This document shows positions 187-57,606 of a stretch of 64,000 nucleotides of DNA, one piece after another; the first letter of the stretch is position 1, and the number at the start of each line of letters is the position of its first letter. Origin of the DNA: Patescibacteria group bacterium (lineage in GTDB: Bacteria; Patescibacteriota; Patescibacteriia; 2-12-FULL-60-25); assembly GCA_049325475.1 (NCBI GenBank), contig JBMOLN010000007.1, forward strand, positions 95,489-159,488, given 5' to 3'. The position numbers and the translations under genes are program-made. The notes beneath the pieces were generated by a model, which worked only from the letters and a program-made list of their open reading frames with translations, made no database searches and was not told where the DNA came from.

Positions 187-305
187 CAACTAGAATCTAG
201 TGCCTAGCGACTAACATCACGTATCGTGCATCCTGTATCGTCTGACGATTCACGTTATACGTTGCGAGTTTCGCGAATTGAGTTCTTGTGTCTAGTATCT
301 AGAGT
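187..305. repeat. phased heptanucleotide stutter array (17 units)
   Basis: CAACTAG AATCTAG TGCCTAG CGACTAA CATCACG TATCGTG CATCCTG TATCGTC TGACGAT TCACGTT ATACGTT GCGAGTT TCGCGAA TTGAGTT CTTGTGT CTAGTAT CTAGAGT, unbroken phase. Confidence 0.85.
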
Positions 306-3946: not shown

Positions 3947-4735
3947 TTATTTAACTAACCACGATATCACCAATACACCCAGTACCACCCTGTACCAAGC
4001 AAAGGGAATAAAAGTCTTTGTCTTAATATAGGCCAAAAACCACTTGCTCACCGCATAAGCAACTATAAACGACACAATAAAACCTACAAACAGCAGCCAC
4101 AATTGCGATCCTGCGAGGCCATTTTCATATTTCAGCAACGAATACCCGCCCGCAGCCAGCAAAGTCGGCACCGCAAGTAAAAACGAAAATCGCACAGCAA
4201 ACACTCTGGAATATCCAAGCAAAAGCAATGCGATTATTGTAACTCCCGATCTGGATGTTCCCGGTACCATAGCCAAAGCCTGCGCCAACCCAATCAACAC
4301 GGCATGGTTATAACTAATTGCTTCTGTTTTATCGACATCCGACGTCTGACGTCTCGACTTCTCAATAAAATAAAAAATCGCACCGTAAAAAATCAGCGCT
4401 CCGGCAACCACCCAAGGCGAAAAAAGATACTGATCAATCAAATCGCCAAACAAAATACCCAGCACAGCAGTTACGAAAAAGGCAATTAAAATCCTCCCCC
4501 ACTTTTCTTCCAAAGACCTCCAATCCCATTTTTCCGGCCAAAGATCTTTCCAAAAAATAACAATCACCGCTAAAATCGCACCCGATTGAATCACGATATC
4601 GAACATTTTTGTAAAAGATTCCTCAAAAGCAAACCATTGATTAAATAAAATCAAATGCCCTGTAGAACTTACCGGCAAAAACTCCGTAGCGCCCTCAACT
4701 ACTCCAAGTATTATTGCTGTTAAAACGTCTTGCAT
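3947..4735 (-). CDS. uppP: undecaprenyl-diphosphate phosphatase
   Basis: N-terminal GVVEGATEFLPVSSTGHLILF signature of UppP/BacA. Polytopic membrane protein of typical length (262 aa). Confidence 0.9.
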   Translation of the reverse strand: MQDVLTAIILGVVEGATEFLPVSSTGHLILFNQWFAFEESFTKMFDIVIQSGAILAVIVIFWKDLWPEKWDWRSLEEKWGRILIAFFVTAVLGILFGDLIDQYLFSPWVVAGALIFYGAIFYFIEKSRRQTSDVDKTEAISYNHAVLIGLAQALAMVPGTSRSGVTIIALLLLGYSRVFAVRFSFLLAVPTLLAAGGYSLLKYENGLAGSQLWLLFVGFIVSFIVAYAVSKWFLAYIKTKTFIPFAWYRVVLGVLVISWLVK

Positions 4736-4737
4736 AC

Positions 4738-5016
4738 TTACTTTTTAACTTCTGATACCTGACTTATCGACCTATCGACGTCCGACTTCGATATGTATTT
4801 GTTCACCGCATAAGCCAAATACCCCGTCGCCAAAGCAGTTATCCCAATATCATCCAGCCAACCCAAAATCGGCGCCAAATCCGGAATTAAATCCGCCGGC
4901 CAAATCAGATACAAAATCGCAAAACCTACCGCTGCCTTAGGCTTCCAATCCGTCTTTTTATCTTTAAAAAAATTAATTAAATTTTTCCAATATGGTATAA
5001 ATTTCGTATTTTTCAT
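4738..5016 (-). CDS. DUF1232/YkvA-family membrane protein
   Basis: 92 aa with a LIPDLAPILGWLDDIG motif typical of DUF1232. Sits 2 nt upstream of uppP. The C-terminal residues are encoded by a stutter array. Confidence 0.7.
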   Translation of the reverse strand: MKNTKFIPYWKNLINFFKDKKTDWKPKAAVGFAILYLIWPADLIPDLAPILGWLDDIGITALATGYLAYAVNKYISKSDVDRSISQVSEVKK

Positions 5017-6146: not shown

Positions 6147-6275
6147 CCAAGCCTCCTTGAAAGTACCTTAAATACATTAAAAAGACCGGATGATTCTGTC
6201 AAACGGATTAAGTTCAGAATTTAAAGTTCCAAGTTCTATGTTCCAGGTCGCAAGCTCCAAACTGCATGATGCATA

Positions 6276-7085: not shown

Positions 7086-7415
7086 AGTCTTACTATCTTA
7101 ATGTATAAACCAAGATTGTAAAAGTTCACCTGCAGTCCCGCTCCCTCGTTAACAGTGACCAGTGACCGGTCGCTGGATGCAACGTACGTTGACCCGTAGT
7201 CCGGTTAACCAGTTATCCGGATTACTGTTAAACGGGATTACTGCAATACGTTTTGGATTCGTAGTTTGTAGTTTGAGGTTAGAAATATTAAAAAACCTCC
7301 CAAAATAGGAAGGCGAGAATTATTTGCAATACCTGCTGAATATCCGCGGACCCGAATCGCTCACTCGTTGATGGCACATGCGTAGGAAATAATCACATTA
7401 ATCAAAATGTTAGCT

Positions 7416-9084: not shown

Positions 9085-9240
9085 TGACTAAAGCTATACC
9101 GCAAATTACTTGCATAGTCAATAACTCTCACCGCAGGCGTTGGACTCTGGACGCAAAACTCAAAACTCTAGACTCGAACTTCGTTAACCCGCAGTCCCGC
9201 CCTTAGTGTAGTCGTAGGAAGCGGCACGAGACGTTTCAAT

Positions 9241-9280
9241 ATCGACGTACTGACGTATCGACGTACCGACGTATTGACGA
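9241..9280. repeat. octanucleotide stutter array (5 units)
   Basis: ATCGACGT ACTGACGT ATCGACGT ACCGACGT ATTGACGA. Confidence 0.85.
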
Positions 9281-9334
9281 ATCATCCTCTTTTTGATATA
9301 CAAACCCCGGTACACTTCACAAAAGGAAAAGCCG

Positions 9335-10099: not shown

Positions 10100-10292
10100 C
10101 TTCTATTTTCAACTTCTCTTCATGAGAGTTTTTTTAATCCTGATTTTCATCTCGTTGACCCGTGATCCTGTTAACCCGTTAACCAGAGGTATTCTCGTGA
10201 TAACGGTTTAATCCCGCCACGAACGGGACCCCGCCTTCAAAAAAATATTTAAATTATTGTGGCGGGGCGGATATACTTGAGCACGATAAAAG

Positions 10293-10321
10293 TTGTTAGT
10301 TGTCAGTTGTCAGTTTATAAT
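10293..10321 (+). promoter_or_regulatory. sigma70-like promoter TTGTTA-17-TATAAT, ATG 6 nt downstream (leaderless-type)
   Basis: Hexamers at 10293-10298 and 10316-10321. ATG of the kinase-like gene is at 10328. Embedded in a GTCAGTT heptad stutter. Confidence 0.45.
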
Positions 10322-10327
10322 ATTGCC

Positions 10328-11895: not shown

Positions 11896-12034
11896 TCCAC
11901 CTCCCATAAAAGACTATCCAAATTCTCTTGTCCGGTCAACTAAAAACCCCCTCAAGATTTCAAGGGGGCAAAATCCGCCTTCACGTAATGAAGACGTATA
12001 GACTTCCGACTTATAGACGTCCGACGTTTAGAAG

Positions 12035-12153
12035 TCCGTAGTCCGCAGTCCGCAGTCCGTAATCCGAATTCAGAGTTCAGAGTTTAGAGTTCAGAATTCC
12101 TAGTTCGTGGTTCGTAATTCGTGGTTCGTAGTTCGAATTTCAAATCCTCAATT
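12035..12153. repeat. phased heptanucleotide stutter array (17 units, TCNNNNT)
   Basis: TCCGTAG TCCGCAG TCCGCAG TCCGTAA TCCGAAT TCAGAGT TCAGAGT TTAGAGT TCAGAAT TCCTAGT TCGTGGT TCGTAAT TCGTGGT TCGTAGT TCGAATT TCAAATC CTCAATT. The last units encode the C-terminus and stop of the ABC exporter. Confidence 0.9.
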
Positions 12154-14041
12154 CCTGCTTGTCCGCAAGTGCGCGGAATGTTGGAGAAAGTTCATAAAGT
12201 TCGGCAAAGGAATACGCTACGGCTTCAATTTGCGGTTCGCCGTTTTGTAATTTATTGGCGGGCTTGAGTACAATAAACTTGTCGCAAATGCGCCGCACCG
12301 TGCTAAGACGATGCGCAATCACAAGCGCACCCTGATCTCCGGCAAGCGCCAGCTCCAAGCCCTGCTGCACTTCCCACTCCGTGAGTGAGTCCAAGTTGCT
12401 CGTTGCTTCATCAATTACCAGAAAATCTGGATTCTTGATCATGGCCGCGCCAATCATAACGCGCTGTTTCTCACCGCCCGAAAGCTGCAAGCCGTCTTTG
12501 CCAACCTTGGTTTCGAGCCCATGAGTGAGCCTGTCTTCAAAGTCAATCTTATACCGCCGCATCAACTCCCATATCTCATCATCGGTAATCCGCGCACGCT
12601 CTTCTTCCGAAAGGCTATAGAGCAGATTGTAGCGCAAAGTATTGTTAAAAATCTGCGGATGCTGGGCAATATAACCAACATGCTTAAGCCAGGAAGCCAG
12701 CTTTACATCACGCAAATCATAACCGTTCACACTAATCGATCCGTATTGCGGATCCATATGCCGTAGAAGCAAGCGCATCAGCGTGGTCTTGCCCGAACCG
12801 GAAACGCCCAGCAGTGCGACCTTTTCTCCGGGTTCGATGGTAAATCCTACATTGCGCAAAACCGGCCGTGGATCTTTTTTTACATCATCGGTCTCTTCAT
12901 CGTCATCTTCATCAGGTTCCTGACCCGGATATGTATGCGAGATTTGAGAGAACTCCACGCAAAATTCCTTTGCGCCGTTCAAATCTTTTGCATCCGATTT
13001 TTCCACTACATCGGGCTCGATCTTCAGAGCTTCGCTCAACGATTTTACGGACGGCATGTTGAAATTGAAATGTCTTTCAATTTCACTCACGCGCCACATA
13101 TTATCCGCCAACTTTTGCACCCAGGCAAACAGCGGAAACAACAAACCCATGTTCCAGTTGCCTTGCCAGACATTCCACACGCCATAACCCATAATCACGA
13201 TCGTGAATATATTCGTAATCAACGAACGGCTTGAAATCTGACCTATGTACCACAGCCAAAACCATCTGTCCCGCACCAGCAATGCTGATGAATCTTTCCT
13301 ATGCACCTTGATTTCGGGTTTTTGCTTGGCATTTACGGCCACTCGCTCATACTTGTCGATGCGTTCCGTGAAAAACTTGTTTATACGCCGGAATTCTTTA
13401 TCAATCGGCAAGCATGCTTCAATGGTCCGCCTGTTCAAAAACAGCGACCAAAGAAAATGCATTGCCAGCATTCCGGTAGCCAACAATCCGGCAACACCGC
13501 TTAGCATGAACAATAAAAACCACGCCAGTGCAAGATTAAGAAACACGGCATAGCCATCGAACAACAGGGTGGTTTCCATTTCACTGGCCTTCCAGCGGCC
13601 TTTGTCGATATTGGAAACACCCAATTCCGAAGCATGCTGAATATGCTGCCCGGCAGACTTTTGGAACATGCGCTTTAGAATGCTCTGATCCCAATTCACC
13701 ATGTGCTCACCTAACAAGTATTCGCGCGATCTGAAGTGTAGCCACATAAACAGTATGTTGACTGTGTAACAAAAAGCGAAAGCCGCAAACCCCTGCAATG
13801 CAAGAATTGCATTCCGATTCTGTATGCCGTCAAAGATATAACTAACCGCATACGGCGCCATGGTACTAAACAATATGGTAAATATTTCCAGCACCATAAA
13901 GCGCCTGAAATATTTTTTGGTCACGGGAGTCTGCTTTTCATCCCACACCCACTTAACCAATCGTGCGGTTTCCCGCATATCAAGCAAGTACTGCCAGATT
14001 GTTACCGGTGGTCTGCGTTTAACGTCCGCATCTTCGCTCAT
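12140..14041 (-). CDS. ABC exporter, fused permease/ATPase (MsbA-type)
   Basis: Six-TM N-terminal half, Walker A GVSGSGKTT, signature LSGGEKQRV, Walker B FLVIDEATSNLD. Acidic insert EPDEDDDEETDD lies just before the NBD. Confidence 0.9.
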   Translation of the reverse strand: MSEDADVKRRPPVTIWQYLLDMRETARLVKWVWDEKQTPVTKKYFRRFMVLEIFTILFSTMAPYAVSYIFDGIQNRNAILALQGFAAFAFCYTVNILFMWLHFRSREYLLGEHMVNWDQSILKRMFQKSAGQHIQHASELGVSNIDKGRWKASEMETTLLFDGYAVFLNLALAWFLLFMLSGVAGLLATGMLAMHFLWSLFLNRRTIEACLPIDKEFRRINKFFTERIDKYERVAVNAKQKPEIKVHRKDSSALLVRDRWFWLWYIGQISSRSLITNIFTIVIMGYGVWNVWQGNWNMGLLFPLFAWVQKLADNMWRVSEIERHFNFNMPSVKSLSEALKIEPDVVEKSDAKDLNGAKEFCVEFSQISHTYPGQEPDEDDDEETDDVKKDPRPVLRNVGFTIEPGEKVALLGVSGSGKTTLMRLLLRHMDPQYGSISVNGYDLRDVKLASWLKHVGYIAQHPQIFNNTLRYNLLYSLSEEERARITDDEIWELMRRYKIDFEDRLTHGLETKVGKDGLQLSGGEKQRVMIGAAMIKNPDFLVIDEATSNLDSLTEWEVQQGLELALAGDQGALVIAHRLSTVRRICDKFIVLKPANKLQNGEPQIEAVAYSFAELYELSPTFRALADKQELRI

Positions 14042-15216: not shown

Positions 15217-18200
15217 CTATCGGCAAACATCTGAACCGGCTATATTGTTATTAAAGTAAGCGAACAAATTTACTCCGTTAATAAACTCTTCAATATTACT
15301 GCCGGTTACAGCTAATTCCAAATCATAATCACCTTCTTCCCAAAAAACATAAACCGCGCTTGGATTTTCATATTCCCTTGCAACCAGTCGCTTGCCATCT
15401 CTGTCTTGATCTCTGGAACTTACAGGTTCCTTCGCCCAAGAAGCTGTTCTGTCAGCAACAAACTCATCCAAACTCATGCCATAATCAGCCGCATGAACAG
15501 CAACTGTGATATTGTCACCATAATAAACCGCATTTTCAAAATCATCAACAGGAGTCATCCTTTTCCAGTTTTTTGGATATCCAATCTGATAGCCCAATTC
15601 GCAATTCACATAAATCTGCATATCTGCCGACTCATCCCAAATAATCAACGGCGCATTTGTGGCGGGTTTAAATGTCTTAACAATTTCCTGCATATCCCTT
15701 ACAGCCTGTTCCGAAACATCGCTTGGCTGGATGCCGTTAAAGTAACTCCAAGCATAAACAAATTTCGCATCACGGCCAATCTCCTCATCCCAGCACAAAT
15801 CCAGTTCCTCACAATCTTTTCGCTCCCATTCCCAAGAATCATGTGTGTAAACATTTATTATCATCATTTTAAACCAACCCGACTTATCGGAATACTCAGA
15901 ATCTTCTTTTGTCGGCAGATAAAACTGTGCAACCGCAACAACATTCTCGCCATCAACCCCCGAAGTCTCCGCCGTATAACCCTTCCAGCTTGGAGTCAAT
16001 GTTAACTCATAACCATATTCACTATCTTTATAACTCAACGAAACCTCCCCGCTCTCCGATACAACTTCCTCTGTTTTTTTATTATTCGATGTTCGAGATT
16101 CGTTAACCAGATCATCATTATTAAACGTTTGACGTTCGACGTTTGAGGCCACGGCTCTGTAATCATTTCCAACTTCTTTTTGCTCGCCGGTGTATCTTCC
16201 TGCGACAATCAATAAAAACAGCAATCCCGCTATCAATGTTAAAATCAATACGGCAATACCCAAAGTTTTTTTATCCTTTTTACGAAGTTTGATAAAAAAC
16301 ACAATGCCTCCAATAAACAAACTAAGCGCCAAAACAAGCATCAATATAGACCAGCCATCAAAAACCGGCTCAAACATAAGCGGAGGAAACTCCTTTAAAA
16401 AAACTTCTCCTCCCAAACCGGGCACATTCTCTTCCGGATACAATCCTGACGCAACATCTGTTAAATAATCAACCGAACTATTTGCCGCTCCCTTCTCGCG
16501 GAGCTTAGGCTCTATTATTTTATCATCGATTGTCAGAGCGGCTTGTAATTTTTCAGAATCCAATTCAAGCACAAGATCCGAACCTTGTTTTACATCAATA
16601 TTTTTATATTCATAAATTTCAAACTCTCCGCTATCCGTGGGGTAGGATGTCATTACACTCGCCTTCCCGCTGTCAATTCCCGCCGCCTTAACTTCATACT
16701 TGCCATCCTTCGGCATCATAAAATATGAAATAACCTCATTATCCGCAAAAGCTCTGACTTCCGGATAAACAGCTGAATCCTCAACAACGAAATTGCCTTC
16801 CGCGTCATAACCAACTCTTGCACCCGTATCTTTATTTATAATCATTACATTAAATGGACACTGTACCACAACCCTGACTTTATCGCGCGCATCAAATGCC
16901 ATCATGCGCTCTACCATGTATTTCATCTGCGCGTCACGAACATCCTTATAGGCTCTTTCCGCAATACTGGCGTTGATTTTGTCCTTTATATTCTGATCCA
17001 AATTATTAAAATATTGTTGTTCCGCGCTGGTCAGTTTGAGTTCCGGCCTTTGGACTCTTTGGTACACGCCTCCGCATAACGGATAAAACGGCGGATCACA
17101 CTGAAAACCGTGCGCCTGCCCATCCACCATATCCTCCCAATCGGAAATTCCGTAAATACCATGACTGTTCATCAACCATAAATCAAAAATCTTGGCCGCA
17201 TCGCTCCAAAGCGTTCCCTTTTCATAAACCGCTACCGCAAGATGCCCGGCCAGCGTATTCAGCACAGGCGGGGCCAAAACTTCAATCGGTCCGTAATCAT
17301 AATATTTTTCGATGATGGATCTTTCCGTAGCGTCTTTACTCAACCGCAAACGATCCAGCATATTGATTACGCGTGTCTGCTGTGATCCGCAAACCCAAGG
17401 CTCGTATTGTTCTTTTAACCTTCTCGCATAATCCAGACTTGCCTGATTAGATGAAAAAGTCTCAATAGCCATAGCTTTTAACACGCGATTATTAGTGGGA
17501 CAGCTCGCGCACCAAACACCTTGCCGAGCGTATGGATTTAACGGAATCTCATTATATTTTTTAACAATATATTCGTAAGCTTCCTGCTTGGACAAATCTC
17601 GCGCGCAATCCTCCGGACAATTTGCATGCGTCTCCCCCGGTTGGCACATCCAATTCCCGCACCAAATGCTGAATCCCGGAGTAAGCGTGATTCGCGCTTG
17701 CGGATTTCCATTTGCATTTACAGCCTGTAAAACCAAAGTCGATGTTACAAAGTCCCTCGGCTGTTCTGTCGTTGTATAAGTTAACTTTACCTGGCCTTTT
17801 GCATCAGTCTCGGCAGACAATTGCTTAACCGCCCCTTCTTTATCATCATCAATTTTACTTCTCTCATCTTGCAAGCGATAAGAAACTTCCTGGCCCGCAA
17901 GCGGATTTCCGGCCTGCATAACAGTTACAACAAAATCCATTGATGTTTTCCCGTCTGCAACCATTTCAACATCTCTGGGAGAAATCGAAACATCGATATC
18001 CGATCCGCACCGTGCCTCGCAAGATCCCCCGCAATCAACCCCATCTTCATCGCCATTTTGCACTCCATCAAAACAATTCGGTTCAGGTGCGGCAACATCG
18101 CTAACTTCGATCGCTTCGCAGCACTCCCTGATAACCCGGCTTGGACTTAGCAATGCATTCTCCTCAGCACGAGAGACATCCCCGCATTCATTCTTACAAT

Positions 18201-22113: not shown

Positions 22114-22473
22114 TTAAGTTTCACTTAAATTCTTAATAAAACCGGCAATCATCTTTGAAATTTCAATTAATCTGTTTGATAGCCCATCAAAATCATCTGG
22201 AGAGATATAGTTCAACATAACCGCAAGATGCAGCATTGATCTTACTTCACCGCACGAGCCCTTGGCGATATTCAAATAATTTATAAATGCATTTGTTGTA
22301 CCCCCCTCATAGCCTTCCGCAATATTATTCATAACAGAAACCGCAGCACGTTGTATTTGATCTCTGAAAGAATAATCCTTGCAATCTTTAAATACTGCAT
22401 AAATTTCATAAGTTAAAGCCTTTGATTCCTGCCAGATCTTCATGTCCTCAAACTCAATGAACCTCATTACCAT
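22114..22473 (-). CDS. four-helix-bundle protein (23S rRNA IVS / Avd-like family)
   Basis: FRDQIQRAAVSVMNNIAEGYEG and KGSCGEV motifs characteristic of the TIGR02436-type family. Confidence 0.85.
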   Translation of the reverse strand: MVMRFIEFEDMKIWQESKALTYEIYAVFKDCKDYSFRDQIQRAAVSVMNNIAEGYEGGTTNAFINYLNIAKGSCGEVRSMLHLAVMLNYISPDDFDGLSNRLIEISKMIAGFIKNLSET

Positions 22474-23053: not shown

Positions 23054-23124
23054 ACTGAATTTACTTTAAACTGACAACCATCAACTAACAAGAGTCAAAT
23101 AATATCGCGAAGCGATACCAACAT

Positions 23125-23152
23125 TGTTAATTCTTAATTCTTAATTCTTAAT
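23125..23152. repeat. heptanucleotide array (TGTTAAT, then TCTTAAT x3)
   Basis: Read directly from the sequence, between the msrA start and the permease stop. Confidence 0.85.
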
Positions 23153-23161
23153 TTAGGGGCG

Positions 23162-24370
23162 TCATTCGCTCCTAAGCGCATCCACCGGATCCAAGCGGCT
23201 CGCCTTCCACGCCGGATACATGCCAAAAAATATTCCCACAAACACCGAAAATAAAAATCCAATCAACGATCCCGTCAAAGATGCCGCAACAGTCAAAACT
23301 CCAAAATGATTAATAATGGGTACAGCCGCCATGGCCAAACCGATTCCCAAGATACCTCCAATCATTGATAAAGATACTGCCTCTGCTAAAAACTGAAATA
23401 AAATATTAGCACGCTTGGCTCCGATTGCTTTGGAAATACCGATCTCTTTGGTTCGTTCTGCGACCGAGACAAGCATGACATTCATAATACCAATACCAGA
23501 AACCAATAAAACGATTGCCGCAACCGATGTTAGCAGCATAGCCATAATATTTGCCGATTCTTGTGCAGCTCCCACCATACTTCCCGCATCCATCAACCTG
23601 AAATCATCATCTTGCGTTTCTTTTAATTTATGTTCCTCACGTAAAATCGCTGCAATCTCTTCCATAGCCGCATCAACATGATCCGGGGAATCCGCCAAAA
23701 CCATGAGGCGCAACCCGGCCCGCGATCCTAAAAGGGATTTGCTGGCAGTTTCATAAGGTGAAAACACGGCATCATCAAAGCTCATCATGGGCATATTTGC
23801 CCCATTCTCTGAAAGAATACCGATAACCTCAACTTTTCTGTTCGCCACGGAAATAATCTGTCCTAGTCCGGCCGCAACATCATCACCAAATAATTGCACG
23901 GCTGCTCCATGGCCCAAAACAACAACTTTACCGCGTGCTGCATTTTCCTCTTCCGTAAAAATTCTGCCGGACTGCAAAACCAAATTTGTAATATTAAAAA
24001 AACTGGCATTTGTTCCATAAATACTCAAACTTGCATCCGTGGATCCGTAAGATACCGTACCATTGCCCTGCTTCATAGCCGCAGCTTGAGAAATATACTG
24101 CCCCTTCTGTAATATTACCGCTACATCCTCTTGCGACAATTTGGACGAAGCTGTCATAGCCCCGGGTCTGCCGCGGCTGTCCATGACAAAAATCGAAGTC
24201 ACGCTTAAATTTTTAAATTGATTGGCAATGCTCTGTTTAGCCGCCTCACCAATGCCAAAAACCACTATAACCGTTGATACGCCGATAATAATTCCCAGCA
24301 TAGACAAAGCCGTCCGTGCTTTATTGGACTTTAATGCATCTACCGCCATTACATATAAATCACCTATCAT
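23162..24370 (-). CDS. ABC transporter permease (MacB/FtsX-like)
   Basis: N-terminal TM, large extracytoplasmic domain and a C-terminal FtsX-type 3-TM bundle. Overlaps the ATPase stop by 4 nt. Confidence 0.85.
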   Translation of the reverse strand: MIGDLYVMAVDALKSNKARTALSMLGIIIGVSTVIVVFGIGEAAKQSIANQFKNLSVTSIFVMDSRGRPGAMTASSKLSQEDVAVILQKGQYISQAAAMKQGNGTVSYGSTDASLSIYGTNASFFNITNLVLQSGRIFTEEENAARGKVVVLGHGAAVQLFGDDVAAGLGQIISVANRKVEVIGILSENGANMPMMSFDDAVFSPYETASKSLLGSRAGLRLMVLADSPDHVDAAMEEIAAILREEHKLKETQDDDFRLMDAGSMVGAAQESANIMAMLLTSVAAIVLLVSGIGIMNVMLVSVAERTKEIGISKAIGAKRANILFQFLAEAVSLSMIGGILGIGLAMAAVPIINHFGVLTVAASLTGSLIGFLFSVFVGIFFGMYPAWKASRLDPVDALRSE

Positions 24371-27750: not shown

Positions 27751-27897
27751 AGATATTTCTTGCCTATTTATACGCAAAAAACTTATTCTTCTTTCACAAC
27801 TCTGTCAAGAGCAGACGCTAGACGCTGGACTCTGGACACTAAACTAAAGTACTCAATGCTCCGTGCTCCGTGCTCCGCGCTTGAATCCTCCGAAGCT

Positions 27898-28983
27898 TCA
27901 TGCAAAGGAGGACGTGCTCCGTGCTAAAAAATAGATACAATATACCAAATACAAAATACCTGTAGTGAAGTAAATAAAAAGATTCGCCCACCAAATATCT
28001 TTGATCGATAGCTGACCGCGGCTTCCCCCAACTTTGGGAATGCAAATCCTGCTCCCGTCTTGCGCAAAACAATCACCTCCAAGCTCGATATCCCGCGCTC
28101 CGGCAAATGTCACAATCGGAATCCCGCCATTTGGCGATGGTCCTTTTTGCGCGTCTCTCCTCCAAGCTTTTATCGCCAAAAACGGATGTTGTTTGGTGAA
28201 AAATGCTGCAGCGGCTATGAGCGCTCCGGTAATCCGTGCCGGTATCCAATTCACAACATCATCGGCCTTGGCCGAAAACCAACCGAAATCACGATACTTT
28301 TCATTTTTATAACCCACCATTGAATCCAAAGTATTTATCGCTTTATAGGTTAGCGCCAACGGCCCTCCGCCGATCATGGCAAAAAATAACGGCGCAATAA
28401 TTCCATCTGACAAATTTTCTGTCAATGTCTCAATCGTTCCGCGGATTATTCCTTGTTCATCTTCACGTGAGCAATCGCGGCTGACGACTGTCTGCAAACG
28501 ATTTCTGGCCGCTTGCAAATCTCCACGGCGCAGCAGACCTACAATCACCCGCCCTTCTGCTGTCAGCGACCTTATAGCTAAGGCATAAAATATCATAATT
28601 ACATTTACCGCCACGCCAAGTCTCCAATCAATAATTATGCTAATGATATAAATCGCACTTGTAATAATCAGTGTCACATCAACAACAACCAACCATAAAA
28701 TAATCCCTGCGGCTTTCAGCTTACGAGCCGTATCTGTGTATCGTGTATCGTGTATCTTGTATCTTGTATCCTGCATCGTCTGACGTTCAGCTGAAGGTTC
28801 GACGTTTCGCGTTTCACGTTTCGCGATTTGCACTTCCTTCTGTCCTTCAACCTTTGTCCTTAATCCTTTTTCAATAAATGAAATAAACGCCCCCATCCAC
28901 CTAACCGGATGCGGAAGCCATTTTGGATCGCCCAGAATCAAATCCAAAGCAATTGCCAGCAATATTAAGTAAATATCTGCCAT
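27898..28983 (-). CDS. cbiB: adenosylcobinamide-phosphate synthase (CbiB/CobD family) with in-frame repeat insertion
   Basis: ILGDPKWLPHPVRWMG N-terminal signature and polytopic layout. About 40 extra residues after the first conserved loop are encoded by a heptad stutter array. Confidence 0.8.
   Translation of the reverse strand: MADIYLILLAIALDLILGDPKWLPHPVRWMGAFISFIEKGLRTKVEGQKEVQIAKRETRNVEPSAERQTMQDTRYKIHDTRYTDTARKLKAAGIILWLVVVDVTLIITSAIYIISIIIDWRLGVAVNVIMIFYALAIRSLTAEGRVIVGLLRRGDLQAARNRLQTVVSRDCSREDEQGIIRGTIETLTENLSDGIIAPLFFAMIGGGPLALTYKAINTLDSMVGYKNEKYRDFGWFSAKADDVVNWIPARITGALIAAAAFFTKQHPFLAIKAWRRDAQKGPSPNGGIPIVTFAGARDIELGGDCFAQDGSRICIPKVGGSRGQLSIKDIWWANLFIYFTTGILYLVYCIYFLARSTSSFA
28730..28828. 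repeat. phased heptanucleotide stutter array inside the cbiB coding sequence (14 units)
   Basis: GTATCTG TGTATCG TGTATCG TGTATCT TGTATCT TGTATCC TGCATCG TCTGACG TTCAGCT GAAGGTT CGACGTT TCGCGTT TCACGTT TCGCGAT. Translated in frame on the minus strand, including DTRYKIH/DTRYTDT. Confidence 0.85.
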
Positions 28984-29922: not shown

Positions 29923-30006
29923 GCTAGTCGCTAGATACTAGATGCTAGTAGCTAAATTCCAAATACCAAATACAAATATTGAATTGCTAATTGCTAATTG
30001 CTAATT
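29923..30006. repeat. phased heptanucleotide stutter array (12 units)
   Basis: GCTAGTC GCTAGAT ACTAGAT GCTAGTA GCTAAAT TCCAAAT ACCAAAT ACAAATA TTGAATT GCTAATT GCTAATT GCTAATT. Confidence 0.9.
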
Positions 30007-30021
30007 TATAATGTATATAGT

Positions 30022-31593
30022 ATGAAAAGTTTCGCACTTTGTTTAATGATCGCCGGCGGTCTTTTTATTTTTGCCAACAATGCTCAAGCTGCAGCCGATG
30101 CTTGCAACAATCCCTACATGTCGCTTAAGCAAGGTGACGAAATCCATTATCAAAGCGATGATACAAACCGCAGTTTTCAAATCCTTGTAGGTGATTCCGA
30201 AAAAGGAAAAACTACAATAAATTATCAATTCCCCAATTCATCACTAACCCAAAACATTTCTTGCCAGGATAAAACTGTTTTAGCCGGCAACTTTGTCGAC
30301 ACTTCCGCAAAAGACCTGGCTTTAACTGCTCAAGAAGTAACCGGTTCATTTCTCCCGGGTGATGTCCAACTCGGTTCCAGCTGGAGTACCAACTACAAAG
30401 CTTCTCAAAATATTGATAACAAAGAAGTCCTTTATACTATTCAAATTGATCACTGCGCCATAGCCGAATCCAGAATCAAGGTCCCGGCCGGCACTTATGA
30501 TACTTTAAAAATCCGCCTCACCGGCACAATCTCTTCAGATAATCCGGATGCGCCCACCCAAACCATCCGCCAAGATCTTTACTTTGCCAAAGGCATTGGC
30601 CTCATCAAAATCGTAGATAAAAGCAACAACCAAAACATCGAAACCGTAGCAACATATATCAACGTGGGTGACTGGAAGGAAACCGCCGCCAACATTGCCG
30701 CGCCAACCGCTGTTGGATTAGCCGCAGCCAACACAGCCATCGCCACACAAGGAATTCTCTCCGTAGACCTCGGCCGCTATCTTTGGTTTTTCATCACTGA
30801 ACCGCTTTTATTCTTCAGACGCCGCAAGCGCCGCGCTTGGGGCACGGTCTATAATGCTCTAACCCGCATTCCCGAAGATCTGGTTATTGTCCGTGTCAAA
30901 AATAAAAGCGGTAAATCGGTTTACACTCAAGTCACAGACAAAGAAGGTCGATATTCATTTTTAGTCCCCGAAGGCGAATACAAACTCGAAGCCAAAAAGA
31001 CCGGCTTCAGTTTTCCCACAAATCTGGCTAAAACTAAAAAACAAGATGCGCAATTCTTGGATATTTACCACGGAGAAACCATTAAAGTCGGTAAAAACGG
31101 AAAAGTCATTACCAGCAACATCCCTATTGATCCGGTTAAAAAAGATGATAAAGATAATGAAATTATTAAAAAAGATTATTGGCATACAACTCAAGAATGG
31201 ACTGCCTTAGCCGGCCCGGTCGTCGGCATTGTGGCTTTTATTCTCAATCCATCTTTAATGATTGGTATCGCACTCGTCATCGGACTGTTTATTTATCTTT
31301 TCTTCCGCCGCTTCGCCATGAGCCTCACCCCCAAACAATGGGGCACTGTCCGCGATGACATTGCCAAAATCCCCGGTTCCGTAGTCAGAGTTTTTATTAT
31401 GCCGTACAACAAACTCGCCGAATACGTTGTCACGGATTCCAAAGGCCGCTTTCATCTGCGTGTCGGCCAATGCGAGTATTACTTAACCGCTACCAAAGCC
31501 GGCTACAAACCCCTTAAGACTAAAAACTTCAACATCTCCAAAGCCAAAGAACCAAAAGTGATTACAGAAAGCTTGAAGCTGGAGAAGGTGTAA
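30022..31593 (+). CDS. membrane protein with two carboxypeptidase-regulatory-like domains
   Basis: Signal peptide MKSFALCLMIAGGLFIFANNAQA. Two VTD(K/S)(E/K)GR(Y/F)..(V/L)..GEY.L.A.K.G(F/Y) modules separated by TM helices. Confidence 0.7.
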   Translation: MKSFALCLMIAGGLFIFANNAQAAADACNNPYMSLKQGDEIHYQSDDTNRSFQILVGDSEKGKTTINYQFPNSSLTQNISCQDKTVLAGNFVDTSAKDLALTAQEVTGSFLPGDVQLGSSWSTNYKASQNIDNKEVLYTIQIDHCAIAESRIKVPAGTYDTLKIRLTGTISSDNPDAPTQTIRQDLYFAKGIGLIKIVDKSNNQNIETVATYINVGDWKETAANIAAPTAVGLAAANTAIATQGILSVDLGRYLWFFITEPLLFFRRRKRRAWGTVYNALTRIPEDLVIVRVKNKSGKSVYTQVTDKEGRYSFLVPEGEYKLEAKKTGFSFPTNLAKTKKQDAQFLDIYHGETIKVGKNGKVITSNIPIDPVKKDDKDNEIIKKDYWHTTQEWTALAGPVVGIVAFILNPSLMIGIALVIGLFIYLFFRRFAMSLTPKQWGTVRDDIAKIPGSVVRVFIMPYNKLAEYVVTDSKGRFHLRVGQCEYYLTATKAGYKPLKTKNFNISKAKEPKVITESLKLEKV

Positions 31594-38215: not shown

Positions 38216-39394
38216 TTACACCATCCCCAAACCCAGCGCCACAAACATGCCAACTCCCAAAAAAAAGATTATTAAGCCGGCTATTAAATGCAAAGTCTTT
38301 AATCTTTTTTGTCTCCATTCCTCTGCCTTCTCCACCGATGTAAATCCCCAATAAATCAAGAAAGTAATGATCAGCATCGGTAAAATGAAAATAAAATTAT
38401 AAAGCAGCAAATACAGGAAGGCGGTATTTCTGGTCGCCGTTTTTGACAGCAATCCCAAAATCACAATATAAGGCCCTGATGTACACGGAAGTAAAAATAA
38501 ACTCACCACAAAGCCGATCATGAACGCGCCCGGTACAGAAGTTACTCCGCGGATCACGGCTTTAAGTTTAGGACGCCAGCTCATGGGCACTTCCATCACA
38601 AACCATTTTCCATACCATAAAAAATCTTTTAGATTGAACAATCCTATAATAATCGCGAGCACGGCCACGGCAATATAAATATAATGTGTTGCACCCGAGA
38701 TTTGTATTGCCGAATATAAACCGACGCCCATCAACAAATAGGAAATATAAATTGACGCAGAAAATGCCAAACCGGCCAAGAGCGCCCGCCTTCTGGAAGA
38801 CCCTGCTAAAACCGTGGTCAATAAAATAATCAAAACCGCAAAAGCGCAAGGATTAATTGCATCAACCGCAGCTGCCGCTAAAATTGCCGGAATGGTTATT
38901 GTTTGCACAAACTCAATCTTTTCCGGACTTTGTAAAGGATCACTCTCCCCTACGATATGTAAAATCTCATTTTCTTGTTCTGTTGATTTTACTAATTTAT
39001 CCGCCGGCGAACCGCAATCCGCTTCACTGCAACGTATAATTTCTTGCTCCAACGACTGGCCAATGGCACTGCTAAAACCCACAATCACTTTATCATCAAT
39101 AAAAACGGTCGGTACCCCTTCAATCTGACGGCCATAAGCGTTCGCCAATTCTTGAAACAAAGCCTGCCCGTATCTGTCTGAATAAATTTCATAATCTTGC
39201 ACTTTCAAATTCGGATATTGACTCTCCAATCTTTCCAAGAAAGATTCCATGGCCGCGCAATGAGGGCATCCTTGCCCGTAAAAAAAATATAATTCAACAT
39301 CCTTCTGCTCTTGCGCATAAACATCGGCAACGCTTAATACAATAAAAAATAAAAATGATACTATTATGGATTTTAATGCCACTTTGTATTTCAT
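38216..39394 (-). CDS. thioredoxin-fold / CcdA(DsbD)-type thiol-disulfide transporter fusion
   Basis: Signal sequence, GQGCPHCAAME (CxxC) thioredoxin-like domain, then a polytopic domain with INPCAFAVL and LPCTSGPY motifs of the DsbD_2/CcdA family. Confidence 0.8.
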   Translation of the reverse strand: MKYKVALKSIIVSFLFFIVLSVADVYAQEQKDVELYFFYGQGCPHCAAMESFLERLESQYPNLKVQDYEIYSDRYGQALFQELANAYGRQIEGVPTVFIDDKVIVGFSSAIGQSLEQEIIRCSEADCGSPADKLVKSTEQENEILHIVGESDPLQSPEKIEFVQTITIPAILAAAAVDAINPCAFAVLIILLTTVLAGSSRRRALLAGLAFSASIYISYLLMGVGLYSAIQISGATHYIYIAVAVLAIIIGLFNLKDFLWYGKWFVMEVPMSWRPKLKAVIRGVTSVPGAFMIGFVVSLFLLPCTSGPYIVILGLLSKTATRNTAFLYLLLYNFIFILPMLIITFLIYWGFTSVEKAEEWRQKRLKTLHLIAGLIIFFLGVGMFVALGLGMV

Positions 39395-39429
39395 ATTTCT
39401 TATTTCTTATTTCTTAATTCTTATTTCTT
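39395..39429. repeat. heptanucleotide array (ATTTCTT x3, AATTCTT, ATTTCTT)
   Basis: Fills the gap between the DUF134 stop and the ccdA-fusion start. Confidence 0.85.
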
Positions 39430-39432
39430 ATT

Positions 39433-39711
39433 TTAATCTTTTATAATCTTAATCGCTTTCCCCTCAACCAATCCTTGCGCGATTTTTTTATACGCTGACG
39501 ATAAAATCCGTTGAAAAGTACTTTGCGAAGTCTGCATCTTTTTTGCGGCTTCATTCTGATCCAGCTCTTCAATATTTTTTAAACGCATAGCTTCCATCTC
39601 TTCATGAGACAATTCCACAAACTCAAGATCCCTCATGGGGATGCCTTGTGGTTTAAAAAACGTCACATGAGGATCAAATTGTATTCTCCTGCCCAGTCTT
39701 GGTCTTGGCAT
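39433..39711 (-). CDS. DUF134 (UPF0251) DNA-binding protein
   Basis: MPRPRLGRRIQFDPHVTFFKPQGIP start and a sigma-70-region-4-like HTH (AAKKMQTSQSTFQRIL). Confidence 0.8.
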   Translation of the reverse strand: MPRPRLGRRIQFDPHVTFFKPQGIPMRDLEFVELSHEEMEAMRLKNIEELDQNEAAKKMQTSQSTFQRILSSAYKKIAQGLVEGKAIKIIKD

Positions 39712-39990: not shown

Positions 39991-40221
39991 AAATTTATTA
40001 AATTAGCAGTTAGAAATTATTAATTAGCAATAAATTAGTTATTTAGAGTCATTTCTAATTGCCAATTGCTATTTGCTAATTAACTATATTGAATATATAC
40101 CCATAACTATATTTTGTCAAATAATCCAAAAACCCCGAGATCTCCCCGGGGTTAATAATAATTCGCAAAGCGACTCCAGCATTTTTAATTCTTAATTTAA
40201 AAAAGCCCTTATGGGCTTTTT

Positions 40222-43909: not shown

Positions 43910-44263
43910 TTAAGGCGGTCGTAAATGAAAAATTAACTTCGATAACATTCTAATAATATAATTGCTTCTTTCATAAATAACTTTATGGGTTGCTTCATTA
44001 ATGTATTTAAAGCGCAGAGCCAAACACAACAAAGACCGAACTTCACTGCAAGATCCTTTTGCAATAAATAAAAACCTGACGAATTCTTTATTCGAATCTC
44101 TTTCAAAGCCTTCCGTGATATTGCTGGATACAGATACGCTGGCTCGACGAATTTGATCATTAAAGGACCAATCTCGACACAATCTAAATGCCTCAAAAAC
44201 ATCAACAGCTAATTCCATTGATTGTTGCCAAGCTTTAATATCTTCAACTTGTTTAAAATTCAT
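43910..44263 (-). CDS. four-helix-bundle protein (23S rRNA IVS / Avd-like family)
   Basis: FNDQIRRASVSVSSNITEGFER and KGSCSEV motifs. Confidence 0.8.
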   Translation of the reverse strand: MNFKQVEDIKAWQQSMELAVDVFEAFRLCRDWSFNDQIRRASVSVSSNITEGFERDSNKEFVRFLFIAKGSCSEVRSLLCLALRFKYINEATHKVIYERSNYIIRMLSKLIFHLRPP

Positions 44264-44359
44264 ATTTGTTGACTGTATTAACTCTGGTTAACGGGTATAC
44301 GGGACTACTGATCAACTTGACTCGAGTCCTGAATCCATCATTCAAGTTTAAGCCTCTAG

Positions 44360-45877: not shown

Positions 45878-45887
45878 AATCAAGCTG

Positions 45888-46265
45888 TTAGCTTTTAGCC
45901 GATAGCTTATAGCCATCGTTATAAATGCTATTTAAAAAACCATTCAACATCTTTAATAACTCAACCACTTCACTTAAAATATCACCCATCTCATTCTTTT
46001 TTATATATTCCAAATCTACTGCCAAATAAATCATAGACTGAACCTCAACACATGATGCTTTCGCTATACGTAAAAAATAAACAAGTTCACGATCATTTCT
46101 TCTTGCGTAACCCTCGGCTATGTTATTCATAACAGAAAGTGACGCTCGTCTTATTTGATCTCTAAAACCAAAATCTCTACTATCTGAAAATAACTTATAG
46201 ATACGTACTGTTAATTTTCTCGCTTTTTGCCACACTAACAAGTCTTTAAACGAAATGATCTTCAT
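45888..46265 (-). CDS. four-helix-bundle protein (23S rRNA IVS / Avd-like family)
   Basis: FRDQIRRASLSVMNNIAEGYAR and KASCVEV motifs. The last ~10 residues are encoded by a TAGC-word stutter. Confidence 0.85.
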   Translation of the reverse strand: MKIISFKDLLVWQKARKLTVRIYKLFSDSRDFGFRDQIRRASLSVMNNIAEGYARRNDRELVYFLRIAKASCVEVQSMIYLAVDLEYIKKNEMGDILSEVVELLKMLNGFLNSIYNDGYKLSAKS

Positions 46266-46522
46266 ATATCTTATTCTGATATAAACCGATCGCCATCAGC
46301 TAACAGCTATCCGCTATCGGCTAAGTAAAAAAGAAGCCCTTCCGGCTCCTTCGTCTTTGCACCTATTACTATTGTAACGAGAGATAAATGTTTTGCAAGT
46401 TAATTAACAATTCCCAAAACTTTCTATACTTTTCTTAACAAACAGCAACATTTTTTGTCATCTTATTTCAACAATCCACAAACAAACTTCCGACGTATCG
46501 ACGTCCGACGTATCGACTTCCT

Positions 46523-47020: not shown

Positions 47021-47061
47021 ACTACTATAAACTTACAACTGACAACTTACAAGAGTAAATC

Positions 47062-50839: not shown

Positions 50840-50861
50840 GTCCCGCCCCTGGGACTTTTTT
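50840..50861 (+). terminator. intrinsic terminator
   Basis: GTCCC-gcccct-GGGAC followed by T6. Same stem as the 50225 terminator. Confidence 0.7.
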
Positions 50862-51036
50862 GATCCTGATTTACAGCACGTTTCTCCGTAGTCCTGTTAA
50901 CCCGTATTCCGGAGTCAACTCTGGACAACGATTTACGGTTGCACTGGAATACGTTGTATATTCGTAGTTCATGACGTAGGACGTAGGACGATTGGGACGA
51001 ACCCTCGCACCGTACGGTGCAGGGCGTGCGACAATA

Positions 51037-51477: not shown

Positions 51478-51612
51478 CGGGCATTTTTTTAACCAAGATT
51501 TCCGGAATTTAACTTACGATTAGCAGGATTATTAATTAAACCGATAAGCAAATGAGCCACTAAGCGATTAAGCTTATTGGCTTTGCGGCTTTGTCGCTTA
51601 GTAGCTTCGTAA

Positions 51613-51647
51613 TAGAATCTAGAGTCTAGAATCTAGAGTCTCGAGTC
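51613..51647. repeat. heptanucleotide array (TAGAATC TAGAGTC TAGAATC TAGAGTC TCGAGTC)
   Basis: Ends 7 nt before the rsmE stop codon. Confidence 0.85.
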
Positions 51648-51653
51648 TGCCAT

Positions 51654-56601: not shown

Positions 56602-56830
56602 AAACTAACGCATTACGTCGTACGTCTATACGTCAGAAGTCTAAAATTCAGACTTCCGACTTATCGACTTATTGACGTTTGTGTTGCTTGCCCTGAAACT
56701 AAATCCCGCGCCGTGGCACGTGATGTAATTTTACGTGCTCTTTGGATCCCTGTCTCAGGACAAACTAATAAACTTAATTAACTAATTTAATCCACCGTCC
56801 AGCGTCACTCGTCCCACGTCATTGTGTTAA

Positions 56831-56865
56831 TTCGGTGTTCAGTGTTCGGCGTTCGGTGTTCGGTT
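56831..56865. repeat. heptanucleotide array (TTCGGTG TTCAGTG TTCGGCG TTCGGTG TTCGGTT)
   Basis: Within the 507-nt spacer upstream of pnp. Confidence 0.85.
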
Positions 56866-57000
56866 GTATCGGCGCGCCTTTATAATGGCACGATTAAGCC
56901 AAATAGTCAAAACCGACCTCGTATCCCTGTGCATCCGTTAAACCGTTATACCGAGAATAGCTCTGATTAACGGGTCAACGGGAATACTGGCCAACTTGTC

Positions 57001-57112
57001 TCGAATCTAGCTTCTAGAGTCTGACATTGTGTATCCTGTATCGTGTAACGTCTGACGTTTCGCGCTATACGATTCGCGATGCGCGAACAGAGTTCTAGCG
57101 TCTAGCGTCTAT
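57001..57112. repeat. phased heptanucleotide stutter array (16 units) with the same word order as 187-305
   Basis: TCGAATC TAGCTTC TAGAGTC TGACATT GTGTATC CTGTATC GTGTAAC GTCTGAC GTTTCGC GCTATAC GATTCGC GATGCGC GAACAGA GTTCTAG CGTCTAG CGTCTAT. The last unit contains a stop codon. Confidence 0.85.
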
Positions 57113-57606
57113 TTAGCCAATAAGTAACTCTTTATCGCCTTTACAACTTTCGAATCTTCTTTCAAATCTTCAACAAAAAGAATATGCTCGCGATTAATAT
57201 ACATCCTATCCTCCGGACCATGTAATTCATTCCCTAACTTGATTATCTTTAAATCACCTTGGCCTTCAATAATTCCATTGGCCGAAGCCCTGTCTGTTTG
57301 CAAATAATAAATATTTTTCAACACCAGTTCTTCTTCGGTTTTTTCCGTTATCATTCCAAAATAAACTTGCCCGTTAGACAAAAACACAGCCTGATACTCG
57401 CCTTCATAAACAGCTTCATCCGCAACATCTGTTTTATCTTCTTGAGCTTCGCTGGCCGGCGTAATGGCTTTAAAAAACCCGAACGCCCCGATTAACAAAA
57501 TCGCCGCCGCCCCGGCTCCAAAAAAGAACAGCTTAAGATCTACCGCAGGTTTATGATCTTGATTTTCAATTTTCGGCTCTTGAGCCTCTATTTTTTTACT
57601 TGGCAT
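57109..57606 (-). CDS. membrane-anchored hypothetical protein
   Basis: 165 aa with a single TM (LFFFGAGAAAILLIGAFGFF). Immediately downstream of the giant gene. Confidence 0.6.
   Translation of the reverse strand: MPSKKIEAQEPKIENQDHKPAVDLKLFFFGAGAAAILLIGAFGFFKAITPASEAQEDKTDVADEAVYEGEYQAVFLSNGQVYFGMITEKTEEELVLKNIYYLQTDRASANGIIEGQGDLKIIKLGNELHGPEDRMYINREHILFVEDLKEDSKVVKAIKSYLLAK

Follow-up and report, generated by a model that had tools for sequence, protein, structure and literature searches.

A drifting heptanucleotide array behind an ABC exporter gene and the heptad tracts of its Patescibacteria lineage

Directly behind the stop codon of an ABC exporter gene in a Patescibacteria group bacterium lies a run of seven-base units (heptads), which raises the question of how such an array came about and whether it does anything for the gene that it follows. 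The array is located within a 64,000-nucleotide stretch of contig JBMOLN010000007.1 (assembly GCA_049325475.1, positions 95,489 to 159,488), which is referred to as the window and provides all unlabelled coordinates. Based on our analysis, the tract is a degenerate heptanucleotide simple sequence repeat (SSR) of 15 in-phase units, continued by about 42 nt of looser 7/8-base units, that probably grew in place by slippage duplication and mutation. In this lineage and its sister genomes, heptad tracts of many unit sequences are found in most intergenic spacers, and the array behind the exporter is one instance of them. While the focal array alone is ordinary, the surrounding clade-wide heptad architecture is the more interesting result.

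Units and extent of the array behind the exporter

A first-pass annotation of the window, made from the letters alone, had read 17 heptads on the plus strand at 12035-12153, and we recovered them exactly as given there. Over this interval, the identity between bases seven positions apart (lag 7) is 0.75 and that at lag 14 is 0.69, with the remaining lags from 3 to 15 at 0.15-0.29. Shuffled controls (n = 20,000) showed a mean lag-7 identity of 0.254 and a maximum of 0.43, corresponding to z = 12.3 for the array. Segments of 119 nt that are as periodic as the focal array make up 0.017% of the 64 kb, every one of them at the focal locus. The array thus has the properties of a heptanucleotide SSR, namely a unit of 1-11 nt repeated head-to-tail (15 units in a single register, with periods of 7 and 14) and a periodicity beyond chance in its genome, where period 7 is uniquely enriched.

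The units were also said to drift stepwise, as expected from local duplication plus mutation, and both statements held up. The mean Hamming distance increases from 1.75 between adjacent units to about 3.7 between units five or more apart, and not a single indel was found across the 15 units. Tandem Repeats Finder (TRF) resolved three sub-blocks of period 7 (AGTCCGC x3.9, 95%; TTCAGAG x4.4, 87%; TTCGTAG x5.6, 78%) and one of period 14 (TTCGTGGTTCGTAA x2.3, 94%). Nested 7- and 14-base sub-blocks (78-95% identity), a unit similarity that falls with distance and an unbroken register are all in line with local duplication and mutation.

The locus comprises the following features, read along the minus strand (labels such as L003 denote the loci of related genomes):

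12140..14041, minus: ABC exporter gene, 633 aa (Pfam ABC_tran, E 2e-31), stop TGA at 12140-12142
12035..12139, minus: core array, 15 in-phase heptads without indels; its first base is the base 3' of the exporter stop
12035..12139, minus, gene-strand reading of units 1-8: AATTCGA ACTACGA ACCACGA ATTACGA ACCACGA ACTAGGA ATTCTGA ACTCTAA
12035..12139, minus, gene-strand reading of units 9-15: ACTCTGA ACTCTGA ATTCGGA TTACGGA CTGCGGA CTGCGGA CTACGGA
11993..12034, minus: distal tract of 7/8-base 'ACGTC' units (TRF period 15, family D1, BLAST)
11979..11993, minus: small hairpin CTTCATTACGTGAAG between array and terminator, from the minimum free energy structure of the 3' untranslated region (UTR)
11938..11969, minus: intrinsic terminator, GCCCCCTTGAAATCTTGAGGGGGT then TTTTT (terminator scan, 10-pair stem at 11946-11969; fold)
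11911..11939, minus: promoter-like site read from the sequence, TTGACC, 17 nt, TAGTCT, putative; layout as in L003
11614..11907, minus: downstream 97-aa gene, conserved, with a 99-aa gene at the equivalent position in L003 and L008

Both ends of the array required correction. Only the 15 units at 12035-12139 are truly array, whereas the final two of the 17 (TCAAATC and CTCAATT, 12140-12153) are the stop and ELRI codons of the exporter. We set this boundary because the stop and ELRI codons are kept in relatives without the array, in which the C-terminal QELRI of the exporter is found as RQELRI*, MQEMRI* or RQGLKI*. Judged from this comparison, 12140-12153 is ancestral coding sequence that fits the heptad frame by chance. 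The proposed merging of array and gene end is therefore literally correct in that the array begins at the base after the stop, but the C-terminal residues and the stop are ancestral and conserved in array-free relatives. The exporter gene end may at most have served as a seed of the array; its last 14 nt, considered as such a seed, match the first two units at only 7/14 positions, which is not convincing. At the other end, position 12035 is the limit of the in-phase heptads, but a looser periodic tract runs on to about 11993. In this tract (about 11993-12034), TRF detected alternating 7- and 8-base 'ACGTC' units with a period of 15. Small plus-strand open reading frames (ORFs) across the array (47-48 aa) were rejected, as they are without support and overlap the exporter end.

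The near-invariance ascribed to heptad positions 1, 2 and 7 was only partly reproduced: the pattern is weakly non-random, but position 7 varies (G, G, G, A, then T). Changes between adjacent units at positions 1 to 7 amount to 0, 2, 3, 2, 7, 6 and 2 (chi-square versus uniform p = 0.07; positions 1 and 2 together p = 0.03). Selection on a T/C frame, the other origin that had been offered, was not demonstrated, since the positional bias is marginal (p about 0.03-0.07) and the TC excess is near the coding level: plus-strand TC, i.e. GA on the minus or gene strand, exceeds the opposite dinucleotide 1.96-fold in all window arrays versus 1.75-fold in coding sequence. On the same ratios, a universal 'GA' frame motif on the gene strand was rejected.

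On the gene strand, the exporter TGA is followed by the array, the ACGTC 7/8-mers, the small hairpin, the terminator, the promoter-like site with its Shine-Dalgarno sequence, and the 97-aa gene. The terminator (11946-11969) corresponds, according to sequence comparison, to the CCCCC/GGGGG hairpins of L003 and L008, and it sits directly before the promoter-like site of the next gene in the same layout as in these two loci; a Shine-Dalgarno GGAGGTG and an ATG come after the promoter-like site (11911-11939). In L005, L007 and L014, the stems of the exporter terminators are formed by GACGTC. From this arrangement, the array is best read as about 105-150 nt of unstructured exporter 3' UTR, which is probably co-transcribed with the exporter.

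Folding of the array alone as RNA was not significant (z = -1.3; 20/200 shuffles fold equally well), while the fold of the whole 3' UTR is significant (z = -3.9), owing to the distal hairpins and the terminator. Within the focal array, we found neither a G+C hairpin nor a U-tract, and both features of an intrinsic terminator are present in the element at 11938-11969. The terminator role suggested for the array in the first-pass annotation was thus not upheld; because it has no hairpin of its own and lies between the stop and the canonical terminator, the array is better described as 3'-UTR filler. The Rfam scan of the focal locus gave one sub-threshold match, on the terminator (23.5 bits versus a gathering score of 49.5), and tRNA-His was the only match above threshold in the rest of the window. 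A known structured RNA was rejected, as the array reached the gathering score of no Rfam family.

Heptad tracts across the window and in related genomes

The focal array is not isolated in its periodicity. At a strict threshold, nine period-7 runs were detected in the window, compared with 0-1 for each of the other periods between 4 and 13. When the threshold was relaxed, 26 lag-7 tracts (1.9 kb) cover 13.6% of the crude intergenic and 1.05% of the genic bases; the number of periodic bases is 1,899 at lag 7, 55-282 at lags 6, 8, 9 and 11, and 0 at lags 5 and 10. The repeat units vary widely (AAGAATT, TAGCTGA, TAGACTC, CCGAACA, CGATACA, CGGAGCA, AAGAAAT, AATTGCT and others), and many tracts drift in phase over 10-20 units, like the focal array. 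Eight tracts touch a stop codon and five or six a start codon, with a few in mid-spacer. The tracts referred to below, together with other examples, are:

23119..23157, minus: AAGAATT array that separates the MacB stop (23162) from a hairpin, kept at the orthologous site in L005 and L007
57609..57681, minus: TAGCTGA/TAGCTGT x8.4; no other array in the window is as perfect
51612..51649, minus: TAGACTC-type array abutting the stop of an RsmE-like gene (51654)
39380..39436, minus: AAGAAAT x6.7, reaching into the start codon of gene 38216-39394
29980..30023, plus: (AATTGCT)x3.6, giving a putative promoter of TTGCTA, 17 nt, TATAAT, then 9 nt to ATG
56830..56865, minus: CCGAACA-type array, a heptad tract of the window
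6207..6275, minus: ACTTGGA/ATTCTGA-type array (family D20) that begins 1 nt after the stop of a PdaC-like gene and is like the middle of the focal array
190..301, plus: composite 16-heptad tract, copy 1 of a dispersed block, by sequence match to copy 2
57000..57111, plus: composite 16-heptad tract, copy 2 of this block, abutting the stop of gene 57109-57606 (minus)
28723..28845, minus: heptad tract of 123 nt in CobD, an in-frame 41-codon insertion

The comparison of the gene end with related genomes, which the first-pass annotation had proposed, showed that the array is absent from the orthologous site in five related genomes (L003/L004/L009, L005/L006, L007, L008 and L014; L003 = L004 = L009 and L005 = L006 are identical over the stretches compared). 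In the same relatives, a terminator hairpin follows within about 2-50 nt of the exporter stop. Since none of them carries an array there, the exporter array is an insertion or expansion specific to the lineage of the window. The exporter protein itself is 100% identical to an NCBI protein of a Patescibacteria group bacterium metagenome-assembled genome (MAG; 741-kb contig), while the nearest other exporters show 64-66% identity; their loci are syntenic, and the contigs that carry them reach 1.4 Mb. Homologues of the exporter contain ABC_membrane and ABC_tran domains.

At sites other than the exporter end, however, heptad arrays are present in four syntenic relatives. Counted as period-7-specific periodic bases per 10 kb, the window shows 297 and these relatives 131-218, whereas three more distant 60%-GC Patescibacteria loci contain no lag-7 periodic bases per 10 kb and an AT-rich distant Patescibacteria locus is at background level only. 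The heptad trait is clade-wide and clade-restricted.

Comparing L007 with the L007-like L014 gives an impression of how fast the arrays change. At 81% nucleotide identity, the spacer between DUF1232 and BacA measures 348 nt in L007 (17684-18032) versus 198 nt in L014 (11586-11784), the extra array pieces in L007 being 63 nt (9 heptads), 22 nt and 37 nt long and of different unit types. Heptad arrays thus turn over fast.

Other arrays are shared between genomes. Behind the MacB stop, the window, L005 and L007 all carry an array of ATTAA type; in its AAGAATT/ATTAACA form, it stands with a small hairpin directly after the stop of this MacB-type permease (window 23095-23165, L005 about 4826-4880, L007 about 4478-4545). 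The AAGAATT module has a second copy in the window after the trigger-factor terminator (40157-40197; 86% over 42 nt, E 5e-7). In the window (4738-4800, minus), L003 (about 17170-17235) and L008 (20780-20870), the C-terminal tail of a DUF1232 protein is encoded by ACGTCG-type heptads, three of which (21 nt) equal a 7-residue tail repeat that reads SNVERxxSNVEQ in L003/L008 and SDVDRSISQVSEVKK in the window (SDVDRSISQV). All five genomes have an array of this type at the DUF1232 gene end, although in L007 it lies just 3' of the stop instead.

The two composite tracts are 75% identical over 112 ungapped nt (190-301 versus 57000-57111, E 8e-21) and preserve the order of 16 heptads, with the units running CTAGA-type, CGCGAA-type, ACGTCAGACG, GATACA-type, CTAGA-type. 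Because they share this ordered block, whole arrays are evidently copied between loci. The centre of the block recurs inside CobD (27898-28983, minus), where an in-frame 41-codon insert, GQKEVQIAKRETRNVEPSAERQTMQDTRYKIHDTRYTDTAR, is lacking in the 313-318-aa orthologues; the insert coincides with the heptad tract at 28723-28845 within 2 nt, and two of its three frames are stop-free. Rickettsia palindromic elements are likewise repeats inserted in frame into a conserved gene; the CobD insert, however, is a direct-repeat tract and not a palindrome.

Several further observations were made on these genes and tracts. CobD of L014 is called as two ORFs, 236-739 and 776-1180 (167 and 134 aa), possibly reflecting a frameshift, a pseudogene or an assembly error. 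A 53-nt repeat with a CCTCC...GGAGG hairpin occurs within AGCACGG heptads at 27873-27925 and 57951-58003 (89% identical); one copy holds the CobD stop codon and the other lies inside the 3' end of a 2031-aa ORF, so that the last 60-80 codons of this ORF may be of intergenic type. Heptamer arrays of Nostoc reportedly contain small dispersed repeats, as described by Elhai and colleagues in 2008, and the 53-nt hairpin unit fits such a picture. A further dispersed intergenic repeat family (GTTGACCCGTGATCCTGTTAACCCGTTAACCAGAG...) was detected at 10130-10215, 50856-50935, 56938-56995 (inverted), 7187-7221 and 44279-44316, with 74-83% identity and a loose 7/8-base substructure.

Promoter-like arrays lie directly upstream of starts at 29980-30023 and 10293-10322 (both plus) and at 47023-47052 and 23062-23091 (minus). 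Arrays of AGTTGTC type give TTGTTA, 17 nt, then TATAAT or TAAAGT, and the copies follow gene orientation, being inverted where the gene is on the opposite strand. Genes of the 23S_rRNA_IVP type (four-helix-bundle, S23p/Avd-like; Pfam E about 4e-34) are present as two or three paralogues, including 45888-46265 and 22114-22473 (minus), and also occur in L005 and L008. Repeat family D2 is found at these genes and at 44106-44190, and the gene at 45888-46265 is flanked by inverted TAGCTGx heptad tracts (45883-45913, 46292-46324). Four-base palindromes, prominently CTAG, AGCT and ACGT, number 87 per kb in lag-7 tracts versus 67 per kb in other intergenic DNA; with this modest excess only, enrichment of palindromes or restriction sites was rejected as an explanation. 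Across the whole window (1-64000), the plus-strand GC skew is negative and almost every gene lies on the minus strand, so that the orientations of transcription and replication are inseparable within it.

Weighing local growth against import, binding and switching

How, then, did the exporter array arise? In the scenario that we favour, strand slippage or unequal exchange in spacer DNA free of constraint would have duplicated units of 7 and 14 bases again and again, and point mutations would have accrued between the duplication rounds. The outcome would be blocks of near-identical units joined by intermediates, which would appear as stepwise drift, and the array would expand until it filled the sole unconstrained space between exporter stop and terminator. 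Its limits, the base after the stop on one side and the terminator on the other, would be expected because no other such space was available. We consider this in-place slippage model the best one because of the sub-blocks, the gradient between neighbouring units, the fit between stop and terminator, the absence from relatives and the genome-wide specificity for period 7. We infer a slippage mechanism, and an array that is neutral or at most a spacer and not a dedicated signal; on present evidence, this single exporter array is without special function.

Several observations weigh against growth in place by slippage alone. Slippage itself was not observed, as all copies of the locus that we found are identical: a Logan contig (L001, run SRR32167788) is base-identical to the window over the 7.9 kb compared, array included, and the searches of the metagenome collection and of genome contigs turned up no relatives at strain level. 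The register is unbroken by any indel though about half of the positions have changed, which could reflect a constraint on the register. Parts of the focal tract resemble other tracts of the window, and the focal tract matches a non-orthologous array in L007 (17734-17806, 73% over 73 nt) in the same orientation to the upstream gene. The 112-nt block that occurs twice in the window, and in part within CobD, indicates that some arrays are not purely local products. Finally, genomes with an exporter identity of only about 65% still share arrays at the orthologous MacB and DUF1232 gene ends. Such persistence is not predicted by pure neutral decay, although self-renewing tandem arrays could produce it. 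The strict phase, the orthologous persistence of some arrays and the block copying keep functional or mobile readings alive.

Among these, it is unlikely that the tract or its modules were imported from another locus as a dispersed or mobile composite element. Block copying as such is evident from the two composite tracts and the recurrence of their centre in CobD, and from the AAGAATT module with its hairpin behind both MacB and trigger factor. In addition, BLAST matched the ACGTC module of the focal tract to 46486-46521 (83%) and 56615-56643 (90%) over 29-36 nt; the related tracts are 46486-46521, 56615-56650, 4763-4798 and 9240-9283, and the middle of the focal tract resembles 6211-6248 (74% over 38 nt). 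A full-length paralogue of the 150-nt tract, however, was found neither in the 64 kb nor in about 130 kb of relatives' loci, with the best window matches at 38 nt or less, and terminal inverted repeats, a target-site duplication or a hairpin were not detected. Moreover, internal 7- and 14-base sub-blocks at 94-95% identity point to recent duplication on the spot. A palindromic mobile element of MITE or REP type was rejected, as there are no inverted arms and the DNA folds are mostly non-significant: the focal tract reached z = -1.9 (minus strand) and -0.7, and of five folds of the focal tract and three composite tracts, three range from -0.5 to -0.8, with composite copy B at -2.2 and the focal minus strand at -1.9.

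We likewise give little credence to the idea that the array is a functional RNA or single-stranded DNA platform, in which each heptad would be occupied by one single-strand-binding protein (with an OB fold of the cold-shock-domain or S1 type, or else CsrA at the GGA units or Rho on the C-rich, G-poor first half), so that the 3' UTR would be covered in register and mRNA stability or termination thereby tuned. The array is unstructured and lies in the presumed transcript just before the terminator, with 18 C versus 10 G in the first 70 nt of the gene strand and GGA every 7 nt in the remainder. Its closest external match, the L007 array mentioned above, keeps the same orientation to its upstream gene, promoter-proximal arrays flip with gene orientation (families I4 and I8), and arrays persist at the orthologous MacB and DUF1232 gene ends. 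CspB of B. subtilis binds with one protein per heptamer, and S1, Csp or Csr proteins were proposed to bind TAACTGA repeats (PMC4679880). Against a binding role, the arrays share no unit or frame (AAGAATT, CGGAGCA, TAGCTGA), the GA/TC bias does not exceed that of coding sequence, a like tract is tolerated within the CobD reading frame, and no candidate binding protein was identified. The exporter array is also missing in all relatives and thus dispensable for the exporter gene.

A phase-variable contingency locus, in which unit number would switch or tune the exporter or the downstream gene, is very improbable: heptanucleotide tracts reportedly act in this way in the Haemophilus hmw and Vibrio ctxAB promoters, and array length differs between related species in the DUF1232-BacA spacer, but the focal tract lies between stop and terminator, outside reading frame and promoter, is too degenerate for efficient slippage (longest near-perfect run about 4 units), and no length variants were found in the Logan contig or the metagenome gene-end search. 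This degenerate search of a metagenome collection returned the L003 type only, and a genome-contig scan for close relatives of the locus gave only one remote Calditrichaceae match. That the array is itself a terminator or structured RNA has scarcely any probability, since it does lie directly after the stop, where the relatives' terminators are, but is followed by a separate canonical terminator and has no G+C hairpin or U-run, a fold no better than shuffles and no Rfam family.

Known heptamer repeats and the meaning of the heptad tracts

Growth in place by slippage agrees with what has been reported for other prokaryotes. Heptanucleotide repeats are the most abundant class of long SSRs (LSSRs) in most prokaryotic genomes, and polymerase slippage was proposed as their origin (Mrazek, Guo and Shah 2007, as summarised in PMC4679880 and PMC4692102). 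Like these LSSRs, the focal tract consists of head-to-tail 7-base units, belongs to a mostly intergenic class with over-represented period 7, and has slippage as its proposed origin; compared with typical ones, it is far more degenerate, drifts through several unit types and resides in a small Patescibacteria genome. A full-text search of the literature turned up no account of heptamer repeats from Patescibacteria or the Candidate Phyla Radiation (CPR).

The cyanobacterial STRR of Calothrix, Nostoc and Anabaena are heptamers of unknown function, for which a role in transcript stability was suggested (PMC2670836, PMC4692102). They resemble the window arrays in having 7-bp units, several unit families per genome and an intergenic location, including sites between co-transcribed genes. 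STRR are near-perfect copies of a few fixed units, whereas the window contains dozens of variants that change within one array. The focal tract does not qualify as STRR: its units differ and drift, with about 4 near-perfect copies in a row at most, folding revealed no potential for a hairpin, and its host belongs to another phylum, being a member of the Patescibacteria and not a (heterocystous) cyanobacterium. One unit of L005, ACTGGGA, resembles STRR1 on the complementary strand (ACTGGGG).

Direct repeats of TAACTGA occur in marine Beggiatoaceae, some Cyanobacteria and Bacteroidetes, with binding by S1, Csp or Csr as the proposed role (MacGregor 2015, PMC4679880). As in the window, they are abundant intergenic heptamer repeats that touch start and stop codons and are occasionally inside ORFs. 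That system, however, relies on one heptamer, mostly in 2-6 copies and mainly just upstream of starts, and related heptamers are rarely repeated, while no single unit prevails in the window and the focal array is downstream of a stop. The TRF array list contains no TAACTGA unit but more than a dozen unrelated repeated units; the unit nearest to TAACTGA, CAACTGA (10291-10315), points in the opposite direction relative to its gene. On average, 28 nt separate the GGGAATC repeats of Xanthomonas from the ORF upstream of them (Rehm et al. 2015, PMC4692102). Together with the GGGGA(C/T)T repeats of Nostoc, they are similar to the focal array in being intergenic and close behind the upstream ORF, and they vary in length and sequence between related species as the heptad arrays do here (PMC4692102), but they are G-rich and form G-quadruplexes, whereas the focal units have no G-runs. 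The best reading of the exporter tract is that of a Patescibacteria counterpart of the cyanobacterial STRR, TAACTGA and GGGAATC repeats.

These results add a new and very different lineage to the Cyanobacteria, Beggiatoaceae, Bacteroidetes and Xanthomonas in which the heptamer-repeat phenomenon is known. Patescibacteria genomes are regarded as small and streamlined, yet heptad periodicity takes up about 14% of the intergenic bases over 64 kb, and four sister genomes show the trait as well. As the drifting arrays keep intermediate steps, they provide a readable record of repeat growth. In practical terms, ORF calls at gene ends are inflated by heptad tracts, which can also mislead programs that look for repeats or CRISPRs and are likely hotspots of assembly and strain variation in such MAGs.

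Beyond this, genes and signals draw raw sequence from the tracts, as seen from the block-copied arrays, the CobD insert, the heptad-encoded C-terminal tails and the spacing of -35 and -10 elements. A more far-reaching idea, which we regard as improbable, is a 'heptad system' of the clade, in which a dedicated process (a polymerase, a recombination activity or a mobile mechanism) would write, copy and maintain tracts in a 7-base register at gene boundaries, to be read by a single-strand-binding protein. If true, it would supply promoters (AATTGCT units), 3'-UTR spacers, C-terminal tails (DUF1232) and in-frame insertions (CobD), and the clade would either have gained it independently of the heptamer-rich Cyanobacteria, Beggiatoaceae and Bacteroidetes or share it with them through exchange.

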